From: Raillietiella orientalis
Lineage: Eukaryota
Length of the DNA stretch: 64,000 nucleotides
Assembly: GCA_036172245.1 (NCBI GenBank)
Contig: JAYWIR010000005.1
Location: 1,984,001 to 2,048,000, forward strand
Direction of reading: 5' to 3'
Shown: positions 5,771 through 64,000 of the stretch, one piece after another
How the letters are laid out: each line of letters begins with the position of its first letter
Numbering within the stretch: position 1 is the first letter of the stretch
Notes under the pieces: model-generated
The model's input: only the letters and a program-made list of their open reading frames with translations
Databases searched by the model: none
Told to the model about the DNA's origin: nothing
Position numbers and translations under genes: made by a program

Positions 5771-6185
5771 GTAAATATGTGCAAGGAAATTCCTGATCGG
5801 TTTCGAAGGACGTCAGCTGCGCGCGGCTATTGGACTGAGGCATTGCGAAAGCCACGACCGGAGGGTCGTGGCTTTCGCAATGCTGACAGAACCTTCCGCT
5901 GGCCTTTAAAGTGCACTGTTCACGTGCAAAGAGCGCAAGAGAGTTCAAAGGTCTCCCCTGGAACTCCCGGTTCGCACAAGAGAGTTGAGAGTGTCGAACA
6001 GCTCTCCCTGGTCCAGAAAACTCTCCTCTCGCATCCAGACCACATTTCCCCATCCGCCCCCGTTCCCCACAAAGAGATCTTTTTGAAACGAATTGCGTGT
6101 CGATGAGTAAAGATAACCTTTCGTCAAATCGGCGGCTGTTGAGCAGGACCTTGACGTTGTTTTTCCCAATGTCGTTCATTTCCAG
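5771..6185 (+). other. GT-AG intron of the 5-HT1 gene (415 bp, phase 2)
   Basis: GTAAAT...TTCCAG; splicing restores the frame across the DRY motif. Confidence 0.9.
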
Positions 6186-6978
6186 ATACTTGGCTGTAAC
6201 AAGGGTTGAATATATTCACACCAGATCAGCCAAGAAGATAGGACTGATGATTGTAGCTGTGTGGGTCATGGCCTTTTCTGTTTCTCTTGGTCCACTGTTT
6301 GGATGGAAGGACCCGGAATTCCTGAAGAGGATTACCGTCCAGAAGCGCTGCCTCATCAGCCAGGATGTGTCTTACCAGGCCTTTGCGACTCTGGCTACTT
6401 TCTACCTACCTCTGGCCGCCATCCTGATCCTGTACTGGAAAATCTTCCAAGTCGCCAGGAAAAGAATACGCAGAAAGGTCGGAAAGGGCATCAGCTTGCG
6501 TCTGGAAAAGAAACCCAATAAGAAAAGAGACGAGGTGCAGAGGAGGAATGCGGTGATGGAGAGGTCCGCCTCTTCGGGAGAAGCAGCAGCCTACAACAAC
6601 GGAACTGCCAACCGACAGCAGAGTCCTTCCAGCGACGTCAGCCGCCTGGCAATCTTGACGCAGTACGAGAACAAGAAGACCAGGAAGAACAAGAAGGAGT
6701 CCCTGGAATCGAAGCGTGAGAAGAAAGCCGCCAAGACCCTGGCCATTGTAACCGGTGTCTTCGTGGTCTGTTGGCTGCCCTTCTTCGTTACGGCCATCCT
6801 TATGCCTTTGTGCAAGACGTGTCACCTCAACGACTACATGATAGGCACCTTCTTGTGGCTCGGCTACATCAACTCCACGCTGAACCCCATCATCTACACG
6901 ATATTCTCCCCTGATTTCAGGACAGCCTTCAAGAGGATTCTTTGTGTGAAAGCGTCTTCCGCATGCTCGCTGAAATAG
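6186..6978 (+). CDS. 5-HT1: 5-HT1-type serotonin receptor, terminal coding exon (end of TM3 to TM7 and C-terminus)
   Basis: Acceptor ttccag|A completes CGA (Arg), giving DRYLAVT. Open frame to TAG at 6976-6978 with YQAFATLATFYLPL, ESKREKKAAKTLAIVTGVFVVCWLPFF and WLGYINSTLNPIIYTIFSPDFRTAFKRIL, typical of invertebrate 5-HT1 receptors. TM1-TM2 exons were not found in the window. Confidence 0.93.
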
Positions 6979-42347: not shown

Positions 42348-42916
42348 TGTCCGCATCGGCGGCGCCAGTGTGGCGGCGGTCTTCTCTCGCACCCAGCGTC
42401 CTGGGTTCGAATCCCACCCAGGGAGGGATCCAGAAATGCAGAGCGCGTCGTGGGTTCGGAATCCTCGTCGAAGGATACCGATGACTGGTCAATGGACTCG
42501 AGGTGAGGCATTGGCGGAAGTCAGAAAACGCATGCCCTCATCAACTGGGCGAAATTGGAAATTCAATTAACAACCCAGGGTTCCCCTCTGGTTGCGACAT
42601 AGAGCCCTCCCCACCTCAGAAACGACCTTCCATCAAGTATCATGGAGACGGTGGATTAATATCTCTCCGGAGTGTCCAGAAGTGCTCTGCTACCCTTCGA
42701 GGAGCGCCCTTCAGAAAAATTGGGAAGCGTCCTTTCGAGGTTCTACCCAGAAGTGTACACAAGGGATGATGGTTTCCTTGCTGGTACCGTCCGTAAATTC
42801 CAGAAGCGGGTCTCTTCCGAGTTCCCTTCGGAGGAGAAACAATGGAGTACCCCCCTCCGGGAGGTCCCTCTGGAGAGAATGAGGAGTAGGTTCCCTTCGG
42901 GGTTTCCTTCAGAGAC
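42348..42916 (+). mobile_element. tRNA-SINE-like family S, copy 4, 5' part (interrupted by a LINE insertion)
   Basis: A-box-like TGGCGGCGGTC (42371-42381), consensus B-box GGTTCGAATCC (42404-42414); body is the reverse complement of the other copies. Confidence 0.85.
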
Positions 42917-43725: not shown

Positions 43726-46700
43726 CACATTCTTGGGTGGCCTGGAACAGCACCAATAAGCAAGCAGATAAGGCTTGATGACTGGTCGTCTTCCGTGCAG
43801 CCTCACGGCTACGCTGGCTACATTCTCAACGCTTTGGTGCCAGACTGCTTGTTTTGCTGACCCAAAGAACGAAGGAATCCTTGTGGAGCCATCTGCACTG
43901 CCTTTGAGAACTAAAGGCAAGTTTCCCTCTAGAACGGCCATCCCGCTTGCTGGTGACGGCAGCACCTGCAGCACGCTCTTGATCTTCGGTTGACGCGGAC
44001 GAATAGGCGATGCGCAATATGATCAGCGGCCTTTGCGCGCAAATCTTTTGATTCACACAGAATCCTCACTCTCGTTTCCTGCATTTTCCAAGTAACAGTC
44101 AATGGGGCTTGCCCGAGCGCGACGTGGAGATGACCACATTTGAATCTTCGCCCACGTTCCCTCTCCGTAAGTGACTCCCATGCACTTCTATGAACGGGTC
44201 TTCTGAGAGCTCCAATCATATCCACTTTCGTTGCAGTACAAATTGCATGTGTTGAGTTTGAAAAGCCTCAAGTGATCCACTGGGTATCCATGGCTATTTT
44301 TCAGGAAGGTCTCTTCAGATTGAATTTCTGATAAGAATGGCAATGCGCATCGCCCTTCCTTGGGAGTTCCAAGTAGCGAATTCTCGTTTCCAATTACTTC
44401 GTTTTGTCCCTCTGATAAGGTTCATTATTCCGGAGAGGGTAGGACATTTCCTCGCCTAGCGAGCGGTGCTTGTTTATGTACCCCAACTCTTCTCCGGAGC
44501 CGTTTATGCCTTTGCATCCTGTAAAAGACCTTTGAGCAATTAAACCGTGTTGCCTTTTGTGTGCTTCCACTGATGAACTCCCATTACGGTTTCGACTTTT
44601 TTTCATCGCCGCACCCTGCGCCACTGCGAGGCAGGAGCATCCGATTCCCGGAATCTGTAGTTTCCGGGAACTTCTCTCTTAGAGAAAGCAGCTGACTTAC
44701 GACGAAGGTCTGTCTTCGCTCCTAGAGGGGAGAAAATAAACAGGTCTGTTTCGGGTCAGCATCTCAAGTCTCAGCATGGATTCTGCTGCCGTTCCTGCAC
44801 ATTCTCCATTTTCTTTCCCTATTGCCAAAGGGCATAAACTACTGAGGATGGTCCCAAATAAAATCGAACCCTTTCGTTTCGTGATGGTCACAGGAAGCCG
44901 TTGCAGAAATTGCAAAGGAAACACACATCTGAGGTTCCGTAGAACCGCACACAGAAATGCGCACATGAGATCAAAACGGAATCTACGATGAAGGTGGCAA
45001 TGCTGATTCCTCAAGTGTGGGATGAATAGAAACATTCCTCTCGCTGCATAGGAGAATGGAATTGATCTGATAATGCTTAAAACTTTTCTGAACCACGGCG
45101 GGAAAAGCGCGTCCCATGTGCCACAACACTTGAAGACCGGTCTTCGACACTGTTCTTAAAGTGGGCGGACACCGCGACGCATGCTGACACACTGCATCCT
45201 CGGCAGGATCGGTGAAAAGTTGTGTGGCCGTCTGGAATTTGAAGCATTCGAGTCGGCCGAACCTCAGCAGCCCTCCAAAGTAAAACAACACGCCCTCCGT
45301 CGCAATGCAGTAGGTAAGGGGGTAAGGTAGCAGTAAGGTAGGAGGGTTTCTTGTCGCGGCTGTGGTCAGACCCGTGGGAAAATCGTCCTAGCGGGCGGAA
45401 CCTTCCATCGCGCAAGAGGATTGTGCTCGTCCTCATTCTTCTGGACCAGGCGGCTGCGAGCTGGGCGCCGACTTCCCGTCGAGGGTGGAGAGAGAAAAGT
45501 CAGAGACCAGCAAAGCTCCGTTCGGTGGCCTCGTGCCTCGTTTCCCACGCTTTGCAGGAAGACATTTTTGCCTTTTCCTTGAAAGGACCACTGCTTCCGG
45601 GATTAGCAAACGATACGCTCGATGCAATACCGTGTAGGGCATCGGAAGGAGAAAGGAGGGACATCTCACCTGCTTGTTGATTTACAGATCACCATGTGAA
45701 TCTTTACATGGTCTGTGGAGGCTTTCTTGCTGTCAGCGGAAATCTCGCCGGCTGCCACATCCTGCCTGATGCCGAGTTGAGCGCTCCCCACAGAATCCTC
45801 ACGTGCAGCAAGACGCACATCCGGCTTTACCGTGATGTGCCTCGCATGCAGCTCGGTGAAGTTGCTTTTACTCCCGAGATGCTATCGACGCTTCCATGAT
45901 GGAGAGGCTGGAGGGACTGGATTTTTGGCAACTGTCTGGGGATTTTCGTTTTCGTCATTGGCTGCACCCCTATTTTCAGGACGATTTTCTTTATGCGATC
46001 TTCGCTGTTTTAAAGTGATCATGAGCTTATGGTCGTTTGGGGTCCGTAAGAATGATGATCTTCCTTGCAGGATCACAGGACCAGCTCTAGTGGCTAAATC
46101 AGCCATTCCAATCTGAAGGATGCACCCCATTCCTTCTAATAACACTTTCCCTTTGAGGATTAACCACAGCATATCTTAAGCCATTTGAGTTTCACTAATT
46201 CACTTCCACCGCGCTCTTGGATGTTGGTTTCCCTCCCTGAAATTGGGGTAATTCCGAGGATATGTGCAGTCGCTCCACAGGCATCGATTCTTTCTAAGTG
46301 TTTGCATTCTTGCCGACCCAGTGTTCTGGTTCCGTCTCCGAAACGTCGCCCTACACTTGACTGGTTCCCATCCGAAAACCGAAGGTTCCAGAACTCCAGG
46401 TAGCGAAACGGAGGCTGCCAGCAAGCACTTCGACCAGGGGCAACAAGGCAGAGGCTGTGAAGATGGATCGATGAGGAGATGCTCCCAGCTGAACCAACCA
46501 TCCACCAAATGTTAGCATCAGTCGTGTCATCAGTCAGTCGTGTCGGCATTCAAGTGAGAGTTTTATGGGTGGGTTGCCTACCTCAATACTCCTGCATGTG
46601 CGTAGGTGCATGTTATACACTTACAGACACACACGCGCATATATTTATAATGGAATTCCTGGCTTCCTGTTTCGTTGCTTTCCTTCCAGCTTTTCGTTTT

Positions 46701-46744
46701 CTTTGATTCGCTGAGTACTCAAAGAATCGTTCGCCTCCATCAAG

Positions 46745-46803
46745 AAGCTCTTTAACAAACACTAACACTGTACACGACACGCGAGGGTGCGTAGCTCTTC
46801 AGA
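46745..46803 (-). mobile_element. SINE family S tail-only fragment
   Basis: gctctttaac...cacgacacgcgagggtgcgtagctcttcag. Confidence 0.6.
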
Positions 46804-46868
46804 AGTTGGCTTTAACACCCGGTAACGCCGGGTCGTTTATTATAAAAAATAGTAAACATATGTCTATA

Positions 46869-47585
46869 GATGATGGAAATCCTTTTGGGTTCTTTTGGGT
46901 CTGTCTTCGCTGTTTATTCCCTTCCAGCCTTTTTTTCAGGTTTTTTTTTTTTTTGGTACGCTAAGTACCTGAAGAGCCAATCGCGTGCCTCGTGGCCCAC
47001 GTGACTCTTTAACACGGTTCCACGCCACCCGCGGAGGGTGCGTGTTATTCTTCAAGATAAGGTAGGCATCAGGAAGAAGGGGGTCCCTGCCCTATGAATC
47101 CAGAAAGCCTCGGAGTGCGCTCCCCTCACGTTTAGCGAGAAGGGACCGCACCTCCCACCCTGGTTGTCTCCGAAGGGGAACCCATAAGGGAACTCCTTCC
47201 TCATTCTTTCCGGAAGGAGCACCCCGAAAGGGGGATGGTCCTCTCCGGGGATGGATTTCATCTACTCCGGAGGGACCCCGCAAAGGAGCCGCTCCTATTC
47301 ACTCCTCTGAAGAGAACCACGAAGGACGCTTCCGAAATTCAGAAGGGGCGCTGCAGCTTCCCGCAGGGGGATTCCTTGCACTCTTCTGGAGTTCTGGCCT
47401 TCTTTATGGGCCTCCCCCGGCTTAAACCACCACCGATGCTTCGCCCGAATGTCTCGGCCAACCAGCGCCAATGCAGGAGAAACTCGGAACCCAACGACGT
47501 AGTGGCGTCAGTTTCTGCCGCAGTATTCAAACCCGGACGCATGGTGCCACACGCGAAAGCCTTAACCACAAAGCCTCCGACACAG
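46869..47585 (-). mobile_element. tRNA-SINE-like family S, copy 5 (near full length)
   Basis: Terminus GGATTTCCATCATC at 46869, tail hairpin 47010-47047, unit array, head with GGGTTTGAATAC. Confidence 0.85.
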
Positions 47586-47589
47586 GCTT

Positions 47590-48006
47590 CTCTTGGTGAG
47601 CTCTCCCGGAGGGAGAGGCATTTCTTGACACTCTGCAAAGGCAGCCTTCGAAGGTGGGGATCAACCAACTCTTTGGTACGCGATGGAGAGTCGTCCCCTG
47701 AGGGAGAATTGGCTCCATTTTCACAACCGAAAGGGACCTGCACTTTTCGATTCCTGGAAGGATCCCGGAGGGTCGAAATTACAGTCCTGGAGGCCAGCCA
47801 ACGGGGGCATCCGGGGTTTTCTGGCTTCTACGGTGCTTCACACGAATCCTCTAAGGCCAACCAGCGTCATGAGGCGGAGGGGACTCAAGACCCACGGCGC
47901 ACCCATTTCTCGACGTCGATCCCTCCCCGGATGGGTTTGGAACCCTCGATGCTCGGTCCGGCCCCTCGGACACTGAGTAGTCACACGGCCGCCAATGCAG
48001 GCAGGC
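47590..48006 (-). mobile_element. tRNA-SINE-like family S, copy 6 (5' half), in tandem with copy 5
   Basis: Head ctgcattggcggccgtgtg...gagggttccaaaccc is homologous to the copy 4 head; body matches copies 1-3. Confidence 0.8.
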
Positions 48007-48124
48007 GTTCACAACACCCAGGGTTACGGGGCGGTCTCCCATCCCAGTACTAACTGGTCCCGACACTGCTTAAATTTGCCGATCGAACGACAAGAGGTGC
48101 TTTCAGCGTGGTATAGCCGCGAAC
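48007..48124 (-). rRNA. Full-length divergent 5S rRNA-like sequence (pseudogene or SINE3-type head)
   Basis: 118 nt: GTTCGCGGCTATACCACGCTGAAAGCACC...CGATC...TTAAGCAGTGTCGGGACCAGTTAGTACTGGGATGGGAGACCGCC...GTTGTGAAC. Helix I can pair, box A/IE/box C are recognisable, and no oligo-T terminator follows. Confidence 0.88.
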
Positions 48125-50549
48125 ACACACTAATGTTGTGAATGTGTGCGTGAGTACATACGTGCGTGCAGATAGATGCATGTATATATGTCTACATACC
48201 CATATGTATCTGCGGATATCTGTGTGTAGATATTCCTACGAGTATCACTGAGTGACAATGCATGATGGGTATTCCAGTGTTACTACACACTACCACAGAA
48301 AGCATATATTATATTCAGATCCGTGTTCGTAACTCTCGAATTTATCACTAAATGGGTCTTTGAAAGGACTGCATGGACGTTGAAACTCGGGTCTCTGTGA
48401 GAGCAGTAATGGGCACGAAAATAGAAATGGCTTTTAATAATCCTGGAACCTCAGCCCTACATCTTCCCATCCAAGAACACGGAATCTCTATTCGACGAAG
48501 AAGATGAAGTGCCAAGTTTCCACGTGGAGGGCCACTTTTCAGTGCACATCAAAAAAAAATAGGAATAGACTGCAGCATCAGACAGAACCGCATTGCGTTT
48601 TTTGTTTTTTTTTGCAATTTATGGAAAGCCCTTAATCATAAATAATGACTGGCTTTTTCTGGAACAGAGCGTATGAATCTCAGGAACGTCAATCTTTGTA
48701 TGATCGCCGCTTATAGATGCAAGAACGTCGCTGCGTCCACTCAGCAGCCGTTCCGCTGAGCGGCTGGCCCTTGGCGATGAACACGAGGAGATGCATTCAG
48801 AATTTCGCGCTCGGATTCCACACGCATGATGTACAATACGAGATCAAGCATCAGAGATCAGGATGGAATTTCAAGAACTCTCGTTCTTCTAAGTTCTCCC
48901 TAGGAGATGAAACCATGCTTCTATGTGGCGAGTGCAAAGATGGAAACCAATGTTATTGGAATTGTAGACTCGGTGAGTCCCCCTCTGTTAAAGGTACGGA
49001 ACTTGAGTTGCCGGAATTATTGCTCGGCAAATTCGATCGGATTCCCGAGCTGCAGGAAAGCATGGTTTCCGGTCGTTTTACAAACATTGCCTAAGCAATC
49101 CCTATGAAAGATTAAGTAATTTTCCTTTTTTTTGTTTTCATTTTGGCAGAATGAATTTGGGGTCCCCCTTGTGAAGTAGAGCATCCTGTTTTTTACGTCG
49201 ATTGTCAGCAAGAGATGTATCCTGATAGATACTCGCGTTTTCACGGAATATATTCAAGTGTTAATTAAAAATTAAGCGAATCCGTCTGTTGGCAAAAGTC
49301 TGGAAATGGAAGAGGACGAGTCCCCCGAACCTGGAGATTTGTAGGTGTCATTTGCCGAAGTAAAACCAGATGTGTCTTGCAGGCAAGTTTCTTGGAACGG
49401 TGTTCGTGAGAGCGCAGGCCTTGGCAGGAAGTGGATAATAAATCATTCCCGGACGATGGGAGAGGAAGAAAGGGGGGAGAGAAGTGTACTCAATGAAATC
49501 AGGAGTGATTCACATCAACTGGACGAGGGCTTTTTCAGCCTCCTTCATTAATAACAAATTTTACCAGATGTAAAGTTTGCTGTCGTTGATGCCAAAATTT
49601 ACGAGGGTCAATGATAAGAATCGACTTGTTCTCTTTTTTTTAAAAAAAAAAACAAAAAAACTCAGGATTAATGAATAGTAGCCTTCTGTTGTTTGCTGTT
49701 GGGAAAACGTCAAGAAAGCATTTGGGATGAAAATCATCACCCAGAAGTGTTCCAGAAATGCTGGATCCAGTGGTGGTGTCAGACCTGGATAAACCTTCAC
49801 TTCTGATACTACTGAGAAACCCCAAGACTTTGGGCTCCACTCTCTCTGATCTATAAGAAATCACTTTGCATCTTCACACTGATCCAGAAGGAATCCATGA
49901 AGCCTCCAGAAACTCGCAGATTGTTCAAGAGAAAGCAAGAGCGAGCTCCACATAAGCATAGCATCTTTCATTTGGTTGCAGATGATTCCAGACCACGGAT
50001 TATTCCTTCATGTGTATTATATAAGGTCTTATGATGTTTCTTGAGGCATCGGATTGAGGCGGCAGGTTGCATTTTTGTGTGTGTGCAACCCTTTGTCACT
50101 ATCCTGTGTCCTTGATTAAGGAAAACAGTTGACTTTCGTGTTCCTCATGCTTCATCGATCATTCAATGGCACCGTCAAGCCCGAGTGAATTTCCCATCTT
50201 ATTCCTGCACAGCGTTCCTTTTGACCAATGACTGGAGTCTCCTGATGGGAACCGGTGATCAGTTCCCACGGCGACGTATCTTCGTTAGGGATTTCCTGAC
50301 ACCAGCATCAAAGGTCTCACTTCTGCTTTCGGGGAACTTTCTCTTTCATGATTGGTGAGTTCATCTTGTCGTTTCGCGCTGTCTTCTGCCATAAGGTGAC
50401 GTCATTTTAAGGTCAGGAGATCCACAGATTTAGCTGGACTGCCAAAAAGTTCGGCTATTGGTCTGTTCTACTTGGTAACGCATCTCGCGAAGTTTCCGTC
50501 AACCAAGGTCAAGGTGGTGAGTCTTCCATCGTCCACATCAAAAGCAAAA

Positions 50550-51300: not shown

Positions 51301-52679
51301 CGAATCGAGTCACGGAAAAGGCAATCAATGATGCAGAACATCGAGAGCTCGTTCGTAGCAATTCATAGGAAGGAAGAGCAGCCTTGTGCAGATAGGAGGG
51401 GGCGATCGTAAAAAGTGGGTAAAGTCGAAGGTACGCTGAGAATCACAAGGGAAGGGAACGGCGGATGATGATACTGAACTCAGCTGGAAGGACAAGCAAG
51501 TACCCGTATCCACTTCCAAGACCCAATTTATTCCAAGGAGCAAGGAGTCCCACAAGAAGGAAGGATTTGAAGAGCACTCTACCTAATTAAGGAAACTGCT
51601 CTCCTGGATTCAGTTCCCATCCTGCGGAAGACAGCACAGTGGCTGCAGAATAGGTGACCCCTTGAATTCCTGGACATCAGAAGAGCTGTACCAGGAGGAT
51701 CTCATCACGAAATGCTAACCTTTGGATTCCTGAACGAAATCCCTGGATGTGTTTTCTTTAAGAACTAGCAAACCGTCCAGAGCGCTGTGCTGGAGCTGCG
51801 AATCAGCAGTCCAAATTCGCTTGCGAGCAACACTCCAAATCAGAGACCAAGAGGTGGAGAGCATTGCATGAAGAACGGTTAGGAAACCAACTGCAGGTTT
51901 GAAGTCGTCGCTGTGCGACTAGGGCTCGCAGTCTCTTTCTCCATGGAGCCTCCTATATTCTTTCCATGCACAGTCAGGCAGGAGGGTAGCATGGAACAGA
52001 TACTTTATTCCCAAACCTCGAAGAGTGGTCATCGGGAAAGGTAACTAAATACACCGAGAGCCTTGATGATCTCATCATGGGAAAAGACAGAAACCAAACT
52101 CCGCCTCTTCTCCTGACCAAGGCTGGAATAAGATAAGACATTCACTGATGCAGACAGTCCAGTTTCACGAGAAAACGGTCGTTATGGAACCGGCTGTTCC
52201 TCAGCGCAATCCCTATGGTCAGGATGCAGCTGGCCCTCTTCTCACGAAACTCAAGACGAGGAGGAAGGTGAACACGAAGGGGAGACGAGCCACGGACAGT
52301 CTTCTAGCAACGCTCCACCGTGGGGACGGTCTCCATCGGAAGACGTGGGGAATGTTCCATACCACCCTCAGGTGCAGAAGACACCAGTGGCAGCACGGCC
52401 GCGGAAAAATGCCGTTAAAGGACTGTGGGGGGATGAAAAGAACACTTGGCTTGACCTTTAGAAACGATGCCTATGTCAGAGATCCTTCTTCGACAAGATG
52501 GCAACAAGTTCGCTTAAATTTGCTTTAGAAAATTCTGCTTGATGCAATGCTTTAAGCATTCTTATTTCGTGTCTTCAAGGGTCCCATGCTGAGAGCATTT
52601 CCACACAATTATTATTGGATTTTGAAAGCCACTCTCTCAAAAATGCCTCGACTCTCTTCTAAGACTTTTTATCTTTTTA

Positions 52680-53570
52680 AGAAAGGCCAGTAGCGATCTC
52701 ACGGAGAGATAGCCACTATTGGTCCAGGATGATTATCACTTGGTTAGACCGGGTCATTTATTAGGTAACGCAACAAAAGTGCATTGGTGTGAACCAATGG
52801 TTTCACCAGGCACAATGAACCTGCCGAAGAGCGGTACGCAGACCGACGAGGTCTGCTTTGGCAGTGGGGGGAAACAAAAACAAAAACAAGGAAAATTAAC
52901 AAACAAAACAGGGGAGGGGAAATTGTACACTGGAAGAGGGGGGATCGATTTAGGGATTACAGTGCGCTGCTCGGTGTCCTCTGCATCCTGTTCAGGATGC
53001 TGGCAACTTCTGTAGGTCCATCTCCAGGCGGCCCTCAGGAAGATCCGCGCCCGATGGATGGCGTCCCTGCCATTCCGATCTCTTCTTCCCGCATCCCAGG
53101 CTGCCACGATTCCGCGGGGAGAGCAGGGAGCTGCGAAGGACGCGGCTGGCGGCAGAGCAGCGCCGCGCACGAAGAGGCGTCTGAAAATGTCCCAGGGCTG
53201 CTCGCATGAATACTTAGGATCGTCGAGAGGCGAACCCAAAGAGGTCGGAGGGCAGCGCAGCCCAACAGCAGGTGTGGAAGGGCCTTCTTCCCACATCTGC
53301 TGCACTCTGAGCGCCCACACTCCCCTGTATCCACTGGTGAAGACGCACTTTGCATGGGATTCCTCCATGCACCAACGGCAACTCCAACTCCTGCCAATTG
53401 AGAAGATGTGCAACACTGCTCCAGAACTCTGGGGCCACTTTACCTCCTCCGAAAGGATGTGGAGCAACTCTCCTCAGCGTAAAAGATCCTTGGGGTGGGA
53501 CACTCAGGGTCGCAGCGTCTGTCACTTTCCGAGTTGTCCACGACTCTAGTACTTCCTCTCTGCTACATTG
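52680..53570 (-). mobile_element. L1/Tx1-clade family L 3' end (copy h)
   Basis: CSRCGKKALPHLLLGCAALRPLW (CCHC zinc knuckle); RGIVAAWDAGRRDRNGRDAIHRARIFLRAAWRW; T-rich UTR, AATAAA and an A-rich tail. Confidence 0.8.
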
Positions 53571-53880: not shown

Positions 53881-54285
53881 AGATTTCCTCGATGACAGAG
53901 GGCCACTCCGTGGTCGTCCATTCGCCCATCCTACCGGCATGACGGCAGGGATGACCGGGGACGATGTCCTCTGCGCCTTTGGGTAACTCAGCGTGGTCAC
54001 GAGCCGCGGGCGGATGCTGGCCTGGTCCCTGGTGCCGGGCTGGCAGCGGCGCTTGCGAATGGGAACGAAGGGGAAGAGATGCCCCGCTGCGGGCGGGCCA
54101 GGAGTGAGCGCCTCTTCCTTTCATGTTGGCCATCGGCGGAAAATACCGGGCACGTCGGCGCGTCGAAGGGTTGCTTGACCCTCAGCATAAGGCCGAGCTG
54201 TGTGAAGGCATCGCGGTGTCACCATTGGGGGTCAGGTCAAGCCACTTTCTAAAAGAGGTTCGGTTTCGAAATACTGAATGATAGA

Positions 54286-55344
54286 AATCCCGAAAGGTCA
54301 ATCGCACCTCCGCTTTTTCCACAGGGATGAACATACAAATTCATTTTCAACATGAATAGCCATTCCTATTTATTAACGTGTTTATTATTAACAGTAATAA
54401 TATTGGAACACACTTATTTAAGATTTATTGACACTCATTTTATTAATAAAATTAATAAGTTGTTGATTATATTGTTGACATATACATAAAAGAATGAATA
54501 AATGTACATGCTAATTGTATCTACTGACATGTATATTTTTATAAAGATTGACATATACATTGATGTGTATTATGAAGACTATGATGAATAAACACATATG
54601 CTTATTTACATGAATTAATGTACAAATTTACTTAATAGCTATTCGTATTCATTAACGTGCATATTATGAATAGTAATGCTATTGAAGATATATTTATTAC
54701 AATTGACTGACATACATTTTATTAATGCAGTTCATTAGTTGTCATATTCATATTAAAAATACATTGTTCATATCATATAAAATTTCTTTAAAAAGAAACA
54801 TATCTGCTCATCAAATGCATCAGTATTTATAGTTAACATAAATGTATGTGTGAATATAAATATGTACATATGTATGTGAGTATGTATACTTATATATATA
54901 AAAGTGGAAATACACATACATATTTAGAGAGAAACTTGTATATATGTACGTATGCATACATATATATGTAAATATATATATATCTATGTTTAGATATATC
55001 TCTATATATACATATAAGGAATATGTATTTAATGAATACACGAACATTAAATTTTCTTTTTTGCTTCATAAAAATATGCATGTCGATATATACAATGAGG
55101 ATGTACATTTATTTTTTATGATCTTCAATATATATGTCAACAATATTAACGAATTATCAATTACATTAATAAGATGCGTGTCAAATAACCTGAACAAATA
55201 CGTGTGTTCCAATATTATTACTGTTAATAATATGAATTGAGGATGTTAATGAATATGAATTGCTTTGTGTGCTCAAATAAATTTGCATATTAATCTGTGT
55301 GGAATAAGCACGTATGTATTTTCTTTTTATGACGTTTCGGGATT
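54286..55344. repeat. AT-rich foldback/MITE-like element with ~260-280 bp imperfect terminal inverted repeats
   Basis: 54286-54546 is the reverse complement of 55064-55344 (for example tattattaacagtaataatattggaacacac exact, and aatcccgaaa(g/c)gtca at both ends). A third degenerate direct copy starts near 54635; TA/TG microsatellite core. Confidence 0.8.
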
Positions 55345-58100: not shown

Positions 58101-59199
58101 CAACAGCAATACGACGCAGAAAGCAGTATCAGTCACGCGATTCGACACGAGATGCAAAATCTATGGATTCCAAAGATGGAAGCGGCAAGGGAGTTTCAAG
58201 CTGTCAGCATGGAAACAATTAGGAGGCCTTCCGTGACTAAGAAAAAAGAAACGAAGCGACCGAGAGCAGTGTGGTGCTGGGGAAGACACTGGAAACTCTT
58301 TGGAGCGTGGAGCGGAAGTTTGTGTTTTCAGCCCGTCTCGTCAGAGGAATCTGAATAAACATCGAGGCATCAGCCAATCCCACCAGGACTCTTACGAATG
58401 ATGAGCAGCATCCTGGCGGCGGAAGAGATTAAACTCGTACGAAAGCACAGGAAGCTTAGCGTGAAATGTCTGGATAATCTCGTGTGATGTGGCACTCCAT
58501 CCCCCATGCACCATTTGAGACTAAATGCATCTCGAAAATAGGAGTCACTTTTCTTGCAGGAGTGGATAAACTGCCCTCCTCCCCGCAGAACGTTTCTAGG
58601 AGAAGTTAAAAACCCATCTGCTTCCCCAAAGAGAGGAGAACTGGTAAAGAGCAGAAAATATGGCTGCAGAGGCGAATTTTCTCTTCAGTTTCCTGTTCAG
58701 CCGGAGGACAGTAGTTTCATTAAAGCGTTTCTGGTTCCGCCCGAAGACAAACATTCTTCTTTACCGTTAAGTGGACCATTACGTCACTGCTTGAATTCCC
58801 AACGACATGAGTCAAGGAGACACACGTGTAACCCTGATACAAAACACGATACATTCTACGGGTGCATGACTTGCGTAGCTGAGCGACCGGTCCCGAGAAC
58901 GACGCTCGACGAAATCCCTGAGAGGGAAGTGTGTGGGAATTCCCACTGTATTTCGCTTTGTGTTCTCCTCCCCTCCATTTCCACTCACATCCGTCCCACG
59001 AGTCCAACTTCTAAGTCGCCGCCCGCCCAAGTCTTAGTCGAACTGCGGTAAAATTGGAACCGCGAGTTTCCGAATTTTTTGAAAGTTCCATCATGGTTTT
59101 CGCCACCGATCCTCAAAGAGGGATTCATAGGCGCACAGTATGACACGAATAGGCAGCAGCACGAGTCACGAGGCTCCGTGAAGAGTGTCTGCATTTCTT

Positions 59200-60030
59200 T
59201 TTTTTTAAACAAAGCCAGTAGCGATCTCACGGGGAGATAGCCATTATTGGTCCAGGATGATTATCACTTGGTTAGACCGGGTCATTTATTAGGTAACGCA
59301 ACAAAAGTGCATTGGTGTGAACCAATGGTTTCACCAGGCACAATGAACCTGCCGAAGAGCGGTACGCAGACCGACGAGGTCTGCTTTGGCAGTGGGGGGA
59401 AACAAAAACAAAAACAAGGAAAATTAACAAACAAAACAGGGGAGGGGAAATTGTACACTGGAAGAGGGGGGATCGATTTAGGGATTACAGTGCGCTGCTC
59501 GGTGTCCTCTGCATCCTGTTCAGGATGCTGGCAACTTCTGTAGGTCCATCTCCAGGCGGCCCTCAGGAAGATCCGCTCCCGATGGATGGCGTCCCTGCCA
59601 TTCCGATCTCTTCTTCCCGCATCCCAGGCTGCCACGATACCGCGGGGAGAGCAGGGAGCTGCGAAGGACGCGGCTGGCGGCAGAGCAGCGCCGCGCACGA
59701 AGAGGCGTCTGAAAATGTCCCAGGGCTGCTCGCATGAATACTTAGGATCGTCGAGAGGCGAACCCAAAGAGGTCGGAGGGCAGCGCAGCCCAACAGCAGG
59801 TGTGGAAGGGCCTTATTCCCACATCTGCTGCACTCTGAGCGCCCACACTCCCCCGTATCCACTGGTGAAGACGCACTTTGCATGGAATTCCTCCATGCAT
59901 CACCGGCACTGTCACTCACTCCACTTGAAGGAGAGGGTGTCGAGCAGCTGTCTTTAGCGTGAAAGTCCGTGGGATGGGACACTCGGGATCGCAGCGTCCG
60001 TCACTTCCCGAGTAGTCAATGCTCCCCAAG
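59200..60030 (-). mobile_element. L1/Tx1-clade family L 3' end (copy i), near-identical to copy h over ~685 bp
   Basis: 59214-59899 equals 52686-53371 (offset 6528) with about 7 substitutions counted by eye. Confidence 0.85.
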
Positions 60031-63689: not shown

Positions 63690-64000
63690 GATTTTTTCAA
63701 GATAGGGGGTGGTATCCCGGGTGAAGACCACCCTATGAATCCAGGAAGGGCTTCGGAAAAGGGAGTGCGTTCCTCTGACGACTGAGGGGGAACCCCCGAA
63801 GGAAACACCCCCAACCTGGTTTTCTCCGGAGGGACCCCCGGCTGGGTACGCTCCATTTTTCTTCTTTAAAGAGAACTCGGAAAGGATTCGCTAGTAGAAA
63901 CTCCTTCTCCAGAGGGAACCCCGCAAGAGAGCCGCTCCTGTTTATTCCTCCTCTGATGAGGACCCGAAGGGACACTTCCGAAATTCAGAAGGGCGCTGCT
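63690..64000 (-). mobile_element. SINE family S copy 9 (runs off the window)
   Basis: ccctatgaatccaggaaggg followed by five ~40-45 bp units. Confidence 0.8.

Follow-up and report, generated by a model that had tools for sequence, protein, structure and literature searches.

The window analyzed here is a stretch of 64,000 bases, and near position 48,000 its minus strand carries a complete 5S rRNA-derived module directly before the tRNA-like head of a dispersed repeat, here called S. The S part that follows the 5S module (copy A) is cut by a second S-type element (copy B), and a further S tail fragment lies beyond that. The whole pile of copy A, copy B and tail fragment sits in TG/CA/TA-rich low-complexity DNA. 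Read along the minus strand from 5' to 3', the features and the evidence that defines them are as follows.

48125..48225, minus strand: TG/CA/TA-rich low-complexity 5' flank, which holds the sole candidate direct repeat (sequence).
48006..48124, minus strand: full-length 5S rRNA-derived module of 119 nt, without a terminator behind it (Rfam RF00001, pairing and fold).
48003..48005, minus strand: junction, at which the 5S model ends 0-3 bases before the positions common to the S heads begin (alignment of five heads).
47590..48005, minus strand: copy A, the 5' ~395 positions of the S repeat, with tRNA-like head, shared core and part of the body (alignments).
46868..47589, minus strand: copy B, a younger S-type element whose tRNA-like head is at 47586-47415 (nhmmer, BLAST and X1 depth).
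46844..46849, minus strand: TTTTTT, the first T run 3' of the 5S start (run scan).
46652..46804, minus strand: 5'-truncated S tail fragment downstream of copy B (BLAST and nhmmer).

Comparison of the window with Rfam by cmscan matches the 5S model RF00001 at 48124..48006 on the minus strand with 62.5 bits (E 9.5e-11), the gathering threshold of the model being 38 bits. The match is untruncated (model positions 1-120 of 120) and is the sole Rfam match at gathering threshold in the 64,000 bases. A permissive rescan of the same 64 kb with E up to 5 gives ten matches, of which one is 5S and none is tRNA; the remainder are simple-repeat matches to microRNA models, far under threshold. A sequence-only reading of this DNA had described a 5S-like sequence of 118 nt on the minus strand with a pairable helix I. 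The identification and the strand are borne out, the length is corrected to 119 nt, and helix I is paired at nine of nine positions in exactly the pairing proposed (GTTCGCGGC/GTTGTGAAC), three of the pairs being G-U. The Rfam model structure has 34 pairs, of which the module keeps 28 as standard ones; helix II is fully paired (7/7), four of the eight pairs in helix III are broken, and helices IV and V together have two broken pairs out of ten. The minimum-energy fold of the module alone is a 5S-like three-way junction of -40.8 kcal/mol, an ordinary energy for such a sequence (z -1.4) that is equalled by 18 of 200 shuffles. Identity to the Rfam consensus, counted by eye, is 31 of 54 columns in the center of the module versus 18 of 44 and 9 of 22 at the ends; the central part is where the internal promoter of a 5S gene lies.

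A functional 5S gene has an oligo-T Pol III terminator directly behind it. The same reading had noted the lack of such a terminator, and a run scan extends the observation: there is no run of four or more T on the minus strand from 48300 down to 46849, where the TTTTTT listed above begins, 1157 nt downstream of the 5S end. Judged from the letters, any transcript started in the 5S module would meet its first Pol III stop at this run. A stretch of 1257 nt free of T runs is nevertheless within chance for the composition, as 122 of 1000 shuffles also lack any, and T-run depletion was accordingly rejected as a sign of Pol III transcription. Because helix I has three G-U pairs, six model pairs elsewhere are broken and the terminator is missing, the module is a 5S-derived sequence and not a working 5S gene.

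The S family was defined within the window by BLAST, nhmmer and MAFFT. At least nine S-type fragments are present in the 64 kb, dispersed and on both strands. Besides copies A and B they include the following.

~23465→22700, minus strand: copy c23, which keeps its 5' end.
~37457→36760, minus strand: copy c37, which keeps its 5' end.
42348→~42950, plus strand: copy c42, which keeps its 5' end.
14020→13420, 63999→63662, 53914→53595, 60346→60040 and 46804→46652: copies that are headless or cut.

S copies are about 700-770 nt long and end in ...GGATTTCCATCATC without poly(A). The tails finish in ...CATCATC, and the lack of poly(A) suggests a LINE partner that recognizes the tail. Pairwise identity over the first ~400 positions is 52-66% (15 pairs). 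S heads contain an A-box-like and a B-box-like motif (the latter GGGTTCGAATCCC in c42 and GGTTCCAAACC in copy A), the core has a second B-box-like motif (CGTCGTGGGTTC.GAGT ... GCTGGTTGGCC), and the body is built of short CCCTTCGGGG-type hairpin units. The head of copy A had been called tRNA-derived in the sequence-only reading. The A- and B-box-like motifs agree with this, but neither Rfam nor ARAGORN does: Rfam gives no tRNA, and ARAGORN at default settings calls no tRNA gene in the window and none in the five S heads. Relaxed ARAGORN settings give discordant calls for the heads (Pro, His, Ser and undetermined), and it is from the box-like motifs that S is described here as putatively tRNA-headed. 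The five ORFs that overlap S copies contain no Pfam family. Compared by eye, the S core has no convincing match among the SINE consensus sequences from bivalves and decapods taken from the supplements of PMC4824008 and PMC5804259, respectively. As defined in the SINEBase description (PMC3531059), a SINE head is at least 60% identical to tRNA, 5S or 7SL RNA over at least 60 nt; in size and dispersal S is in keeping with the SINEs of that description, being short (<1 kb), interspersed and non-tandem. An intact 5S plus S element would measure ~820-890 nt and would still be below 1 kb. The ratio of observed to expected CpG is 0.82 in the window, 1.10 in the 5S module and 0.52-0.87 in S copies, and CpG decay was discarded as uninformative for an age clock.

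The junction between the two modules is precise. Alignment of the heads of copies A, c23, c37, c42 and B places the 5' end of the S family in copy A at ~48003-48005 (...CTGCCTGCATTGGCGGCC...), and the last 5S model position is 48006, so that a linker of 0-3 bases separates two modules that lie end to start on the same strand. Neither the sequence itself nor the run scan reveals a T-run, an A-run, a repeat or a duplicated flank between them. None of the four other S copies with a head is preceded by 5S (c23 at ~23465, c37 at ~37457, c42 at 42348 on the plus strand, and B at 47588). The sequence-only reading had anticipated both the direct run of 5S into the S head and the missing 5S in the other copies, and it had named a target-site duplication (TSD) or poly(A) belonging to the 5S part as evidence against a fusion; neither was found. 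We calculate a probability of about 4e-4 that, in 64 kb, one of five heads would by chance have the 3' end of a 5S in the same orientation within the 10 nt upstream of it. A full-length, sense small RNA at the 5' side, joined directly and without tail or terminator, is the arrangement by which a template-switch chimera is recognized, and the locus shows it.

Copy A is an ordinary, divergent member of S. Its B-box-like motif GGTTCCAAACC is at 47944-47934, and from 48003 to 47650 it is colinear with c23 (23462-23124; 61.5% identity over 364 columns by BLAST). By nhmmer it matches c23 with E 3.8e-19 and c37 with E 3.6e-20, and its identity to every other S copy is 56-60%. Position 47590, the lower bound given in the sequence-only reading, is not the end of an element; a second S-type element starts there and interrupts the first. 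This copy B has a head (47586-47415) that corresponds to positions 11-192 of c23 (nhmmer, E 8.3e-11) and a body (47392-47001) that corresponds to positions 348-747 (E 3e-34); in the BLAST alignment its 47391-47006 lies on c23 23122-22729. It contains an internal A-run at 46954-46941, ends in ...GGATTTCCATCATC, and interrupts copy A at S position ~395. The composite of 5S and S is therefore not intact.

Further sequence was available from X1, the sole public run with the locus (DNA, low coverage, share 0.12), which was matched at 80% likeness or more. Summed contig depth in X1 is 11-32 over 47127-47553, within copy B, 7.5 over 47554-47614 and 2.2 above 47615. It is 0-2.3 over copy A, which thus has no relatives at that likeness. 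The tail of copy B is 84% identical to the S copy at 63904-63999. Because the X1 depth of 11-32 there contrasts with ~2 on the single-copy flank, copy B belongs to a younger S-type subfamily with close relatives, and copy A and the 5S module have none in X1 at 80% likeness or more.

The join between copies A and B has features of its own. An S-body segment (…CCAGAGAGTGCAAGAA…CCCTTCGGGAGAGC…TCGGAGGC) is found before and after the B head, at 47575-47645 and 47325-47385 on the minus strand, and the join has the word GTCGGAGGC in common with the start of the B head. Copy B could have come to lie at copy A by recombination or by a second template switch at microhomology instead of by plain insertion. 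Downstream of B, the fragment at 46652..46804 is 64.8% identical to the S copy at 60230-60094, also matches the copy that starts at 53914 and c23 (22772-22735), and has an nhmmer E of 1.5e-06. It may be what is left of the tail of copy A, or else have inserted independently.

The S 3' end of copy A is not identifiable because the S part is cut at ~395, and target-site duplications were sought at four candidate 3' boundaries. None of the four yields a convincing TSD for 5S plus S. The best common word is the 9-mer TAGACATAT, which occurs 61 nt upstream of the 5S module and again 1 nt after the end of copy B; it is a weak candidate, since 9 of 300 shuffles also give a 9-mer. The TG/CA-type simple repeats at 54838-55017 and 48138-48202, the latter within the 5' flank, give sub-threshold matches to mir-297, mir-466 and similar models. 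These matches (25-39 bits against thresholds of 81-100, with mir-297 at 48138-48202) are low-complexity artefacts.

Other copies of the fusion were sought in X1 and by a pattern scan. At 80% likeness or more, no X1 contig other than the locus itself extends over the 5S module and the junction. Over 47981-48285 the summed depth is ~2, and the contigs behind it (records 7 and 8) have 0 differences to the locus; nothing matches 47737-47858 at 80% likeness. A comparison at this level would miss old siblings, as S copies differ from one another by 34-48%, and conserved sequence that resembles human DNA may have been filtered from the run. Record 7 (47983-48133) crosses the junction with 0 differences to the window, with only ~21-23 letters on the S side; the bridging rule used for X1 records requires 31 letters there, and the record falls short of it. 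The junction pattern that was scanned consists of a 5S box-C motif, a gap and an S-head motif. It occurs in five stretches of metagenome contigs, none with 5S by cmscan, in five stretches of prokaryote-genome contigs, all bacterial MAGs, and in no viral contigs. The stretches in those collections are chance or unrelated occurrences. Nine of the ten (L001-L004 and L006-L010) have nearly equal match lengths of 52-53 nt and come from soil-type metagenome contigs and from actinobacterial or myxococcal MAGs; they probably represent one conserved bacterial gene that is unrelated to the 5S-S fusion.

The origin of new SINE heads is commonly sought in jumps of reverse transcriptase from SINE RNA to another Pol III RNA. 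Knowledge of such jumps comes mostly from lineages that succeeded and whose old head is already trimmed, and a complete 5S directly before a complete tRNA-like head has the form of the raw product. The precise end-to-start junction on the same strand, without terminator or A-tail, points to a fusion at the RNA level. A plausible scenario is that S RNA was undergoing target-primed reverse transcription when the reverse transcriptase of the partner LINE reached the 5' end of the SINE RNA, jumped onto a mature 5S rRNA at the 3' end and copied this second template through to the 5' end. The 5S plus S product would have integrated in one orientation and, without detectable progeny, decayed, and the younger S-type copy B would later have landed in, or recombined with, copy A at S position ~395. 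The template switch, this order of events and the lack of progeny are what we infer from the arrangement of the modules and the X1 comparison. We favor, at a little short of even confidence, a single-event, one-off chimeric retrocopy. The S tails agree with it: a LINE partner that recognizes a tail without poly(A), as they suggest, could carry a bare 5S rRNA only as a passenger. Such a reading is in line with the origin given for the composite 5S/tRNA heads of SINEs, namely template switching to 5S rRNA, in passages of PMC4824008 and PMC4758252, and non-propagating chimeras of small RNAs with LINE-1 are explained likewise in part of bioRxiv 10.1101/2025.02.02.635956. Several points stand against a one-off: no TSD brackets 5S plus S, the sole common word TAGACATAT being displaced and weak; the lack of progeny is read from one low-coverage run in which old siblings would be missed; the 5S piece of human 5S/LINE-1 chimeras is usually truncated and antisense (bioRxiv 10.1101/2025.02.02.635956), unlike the module here; and a random 64-kb window would be far likelier to include some member of a family with a thousand copies than one of perhaps a few dozen one-off chimeras.

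That base rate bears on a second explanation, to which we give a real though somewhat smaller chance: that the locus is an old, interrupted member of a composite SINE subfamily that once propagated, with a 5S head and a complete tRNA-like head and thus type 1 and type 2 Pol III promoters. Its founder would stem from the same template switch but would have been transcribed and amplified. S-type fragments are dense enough in the window to make this plausible, old siblings would be invisible to a comparison at 80% likeness or more, and, as no Pol III stop precedes 46849, a transcript begun in the 5S module would include S; the absence of T runs is, however, not beyond chance. The closer match of the 5S center to the Rfam consensus might similarly reflect a retained internal promoter, but it may equally reflect the part of 5S that is most conserved across life. 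Against a subfamily, one copy is seen, none of the four other heads has 5S, and X1 holds no further contigs at the likeness used. The 5S module is moreover complete, with a canonical fold and with helices I and II fully paired, whereas the 5S heads of insect elements are only ~63% identical to 5S rRNA in the portion of PMC8010984 that describes them. The architecture is nonetheless that of the ancestor postulated, in sections of PMC4758252 and PMC4824008, for the 5S plus partial-tRNA heads of vertebrate DeuSINEs. The sequence-only reading had offered both origins, a template-switch chimera and a dual-promoter subfamily; the former fits the locus, and the latter has so far gained no support from the single copy, X1 or the pattern scans.

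An independent retropseudogene would have a tail or TSD to itself. It is improbable that two separate events, or a rearrangement of DNA, produced the locus: S could have inserted behind a dispersed 5S gene or pseudogene, a 5S retropseudogene could have landed before S, or a deletion could have joined the two. The pile-up of insertions (A, B and the tail fragment within 1.5 kb) in TG/TA-rich DNA suggests a hotspot, and no TSD proves a single insertion. Both ends, however, would have to coincide within 0-3 nt in the same orientation, the coincidence that we put at ~4e-4, and no terminator remnant, A-tail or TSD lies between the modules. Target priming on the T-run of a 5S terminator would, in addition, be expected to give the element in the opposite orientation, its tail beside the 5S. 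Independent adjacency is thus unlikely because the 5S is complete from position 1, abuts the S 5' end in the same orientation and has nothing between. In some animals 5S genes are dispersed or linked to other genes, as one part of PMC10946416 describes, a point in favor of separate events. An assembly join, or a 5S-bearing element of another class such as a Cassandra-like LTR element, is very improbable. The junction is not bridged in X1 by the 31-letter rule, but record 7 is identical to the window across it; a Cassandra-like element should have two 5S-bearing terminal repeats a few kb apart, and the 64 kb hold one 5S even with E up to 5; and the ORFs over S copies are without a protein family, which speaks against other element classes.

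Vertebrate DeuSINEs with 5S plus partial-tRNA heads were reportedly described by Nishihara et al. in 2006. In the parts of PMC4824008, PMC4758252 and PMC3234267 that treat AmnSINE1, SINE3 and their relatives, these elements resemble the locus in having a 5S module upstream of a tRNA-derived SINE region and in their origin by template switch to 5S rRNA; they differ in being vertebrate and in carrying a Deu domain, whereas the locus has a complete tRNA-like head and an unclassified S core, comes from an arthropod and is known from one copy only. Closer in host are the lepidopteran elements HaSE3 (PMC3272025) and PxSE4/PxSE5 (PMC8010984), arthropod template-switch chimeras with a 5S head on a body and tail shared with a tRNA-derived SINE. 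According to the passages on them in these two papers, the lepidopteran 5S SINEs number 532-4415 copies, with heads of the divergence given above. In the account of HaSE3 (PMC3272025) the 5S replaces the tRNA head, whereas the locus retains both heads and is the only copy seen.

Human U6/L1 and 5S/L1 chimeras, in the section of bioRxiv 10.1101/2025.02.02.635956 that covers them, are likewise small Pol III RNAs joined 5' of a retroelement in one non-propagating event. The U6 pieces among them are full-length and sense, as is the 5S here. The human 5S pieces, in contrast, are mostly truncated and antisense, and their 3' partner is a LINE and not a SINE (same section); TSDs are reported there for six of the eight small-RNA/L1 loci checked, whereas none is convincing here. 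Double template jumps, as presented in part of PMC2104539, are related known events. Among crustacean SINEs, the decapod CORE-SINEs (Potri, Peci, Gayu, Procla and Homa) in the element descriptions of PMC5804259 are also tRNA-headed, but they are 238-355 nt long as against ~700-770 nt for S, have a consensus that is dissimilar by eye, and lack a 5S head; the only 5S head in those descriptions is that of the scaphopod element Ante. Judged by title and abstract, none of 12 papers retrieved on the subject describes a 5S SINE in a crustacean.

What the locus means depends on whether siblings exist. If they do, it would be an intermediate with two promoters and would add a SINE with a 5S head to a group for which none is listed. 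We regard it as unlikely, though far from negligible, that an arthropod SINE subfamily, probably a crustacean one, with a complete 5S before a complete tRNA-like head has left a fossil member here; such a subfamily would be the intermediate toward the 5S plus partial-tRNA heads of DeuSINEs that has been postulated yet not observed as a family. If the locus is unique, as in the one-off chimera that we favor, it is an ordinary dead-on-arrival product and a caveat for annotation, in that a high-scoring 5S match is not a gene. Events of this kind are well known, and the locus is a new instance that is unusual only in that both heads are complete.

Among the other features of the window, we note that the ORF at 5989-6978 on the plus strand codes for a receptor of the rhodopsin family (7tm_1, E 2.3e-38). 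Among named proteins it is closest to 5-HT receptor-like proteins of decapods, at 55-56% identity over ~78% of the frame, and next to proteins of insects and chelicerates, which makes the host an arthropod and probably a crustacean. Two direct copies of 300 nt, at 52666-52965 and 59194-59493, are 97% identical and 6.5 kb apart. This pair is far younger than any S pair and so reflects a recent duplication or a young repeat.
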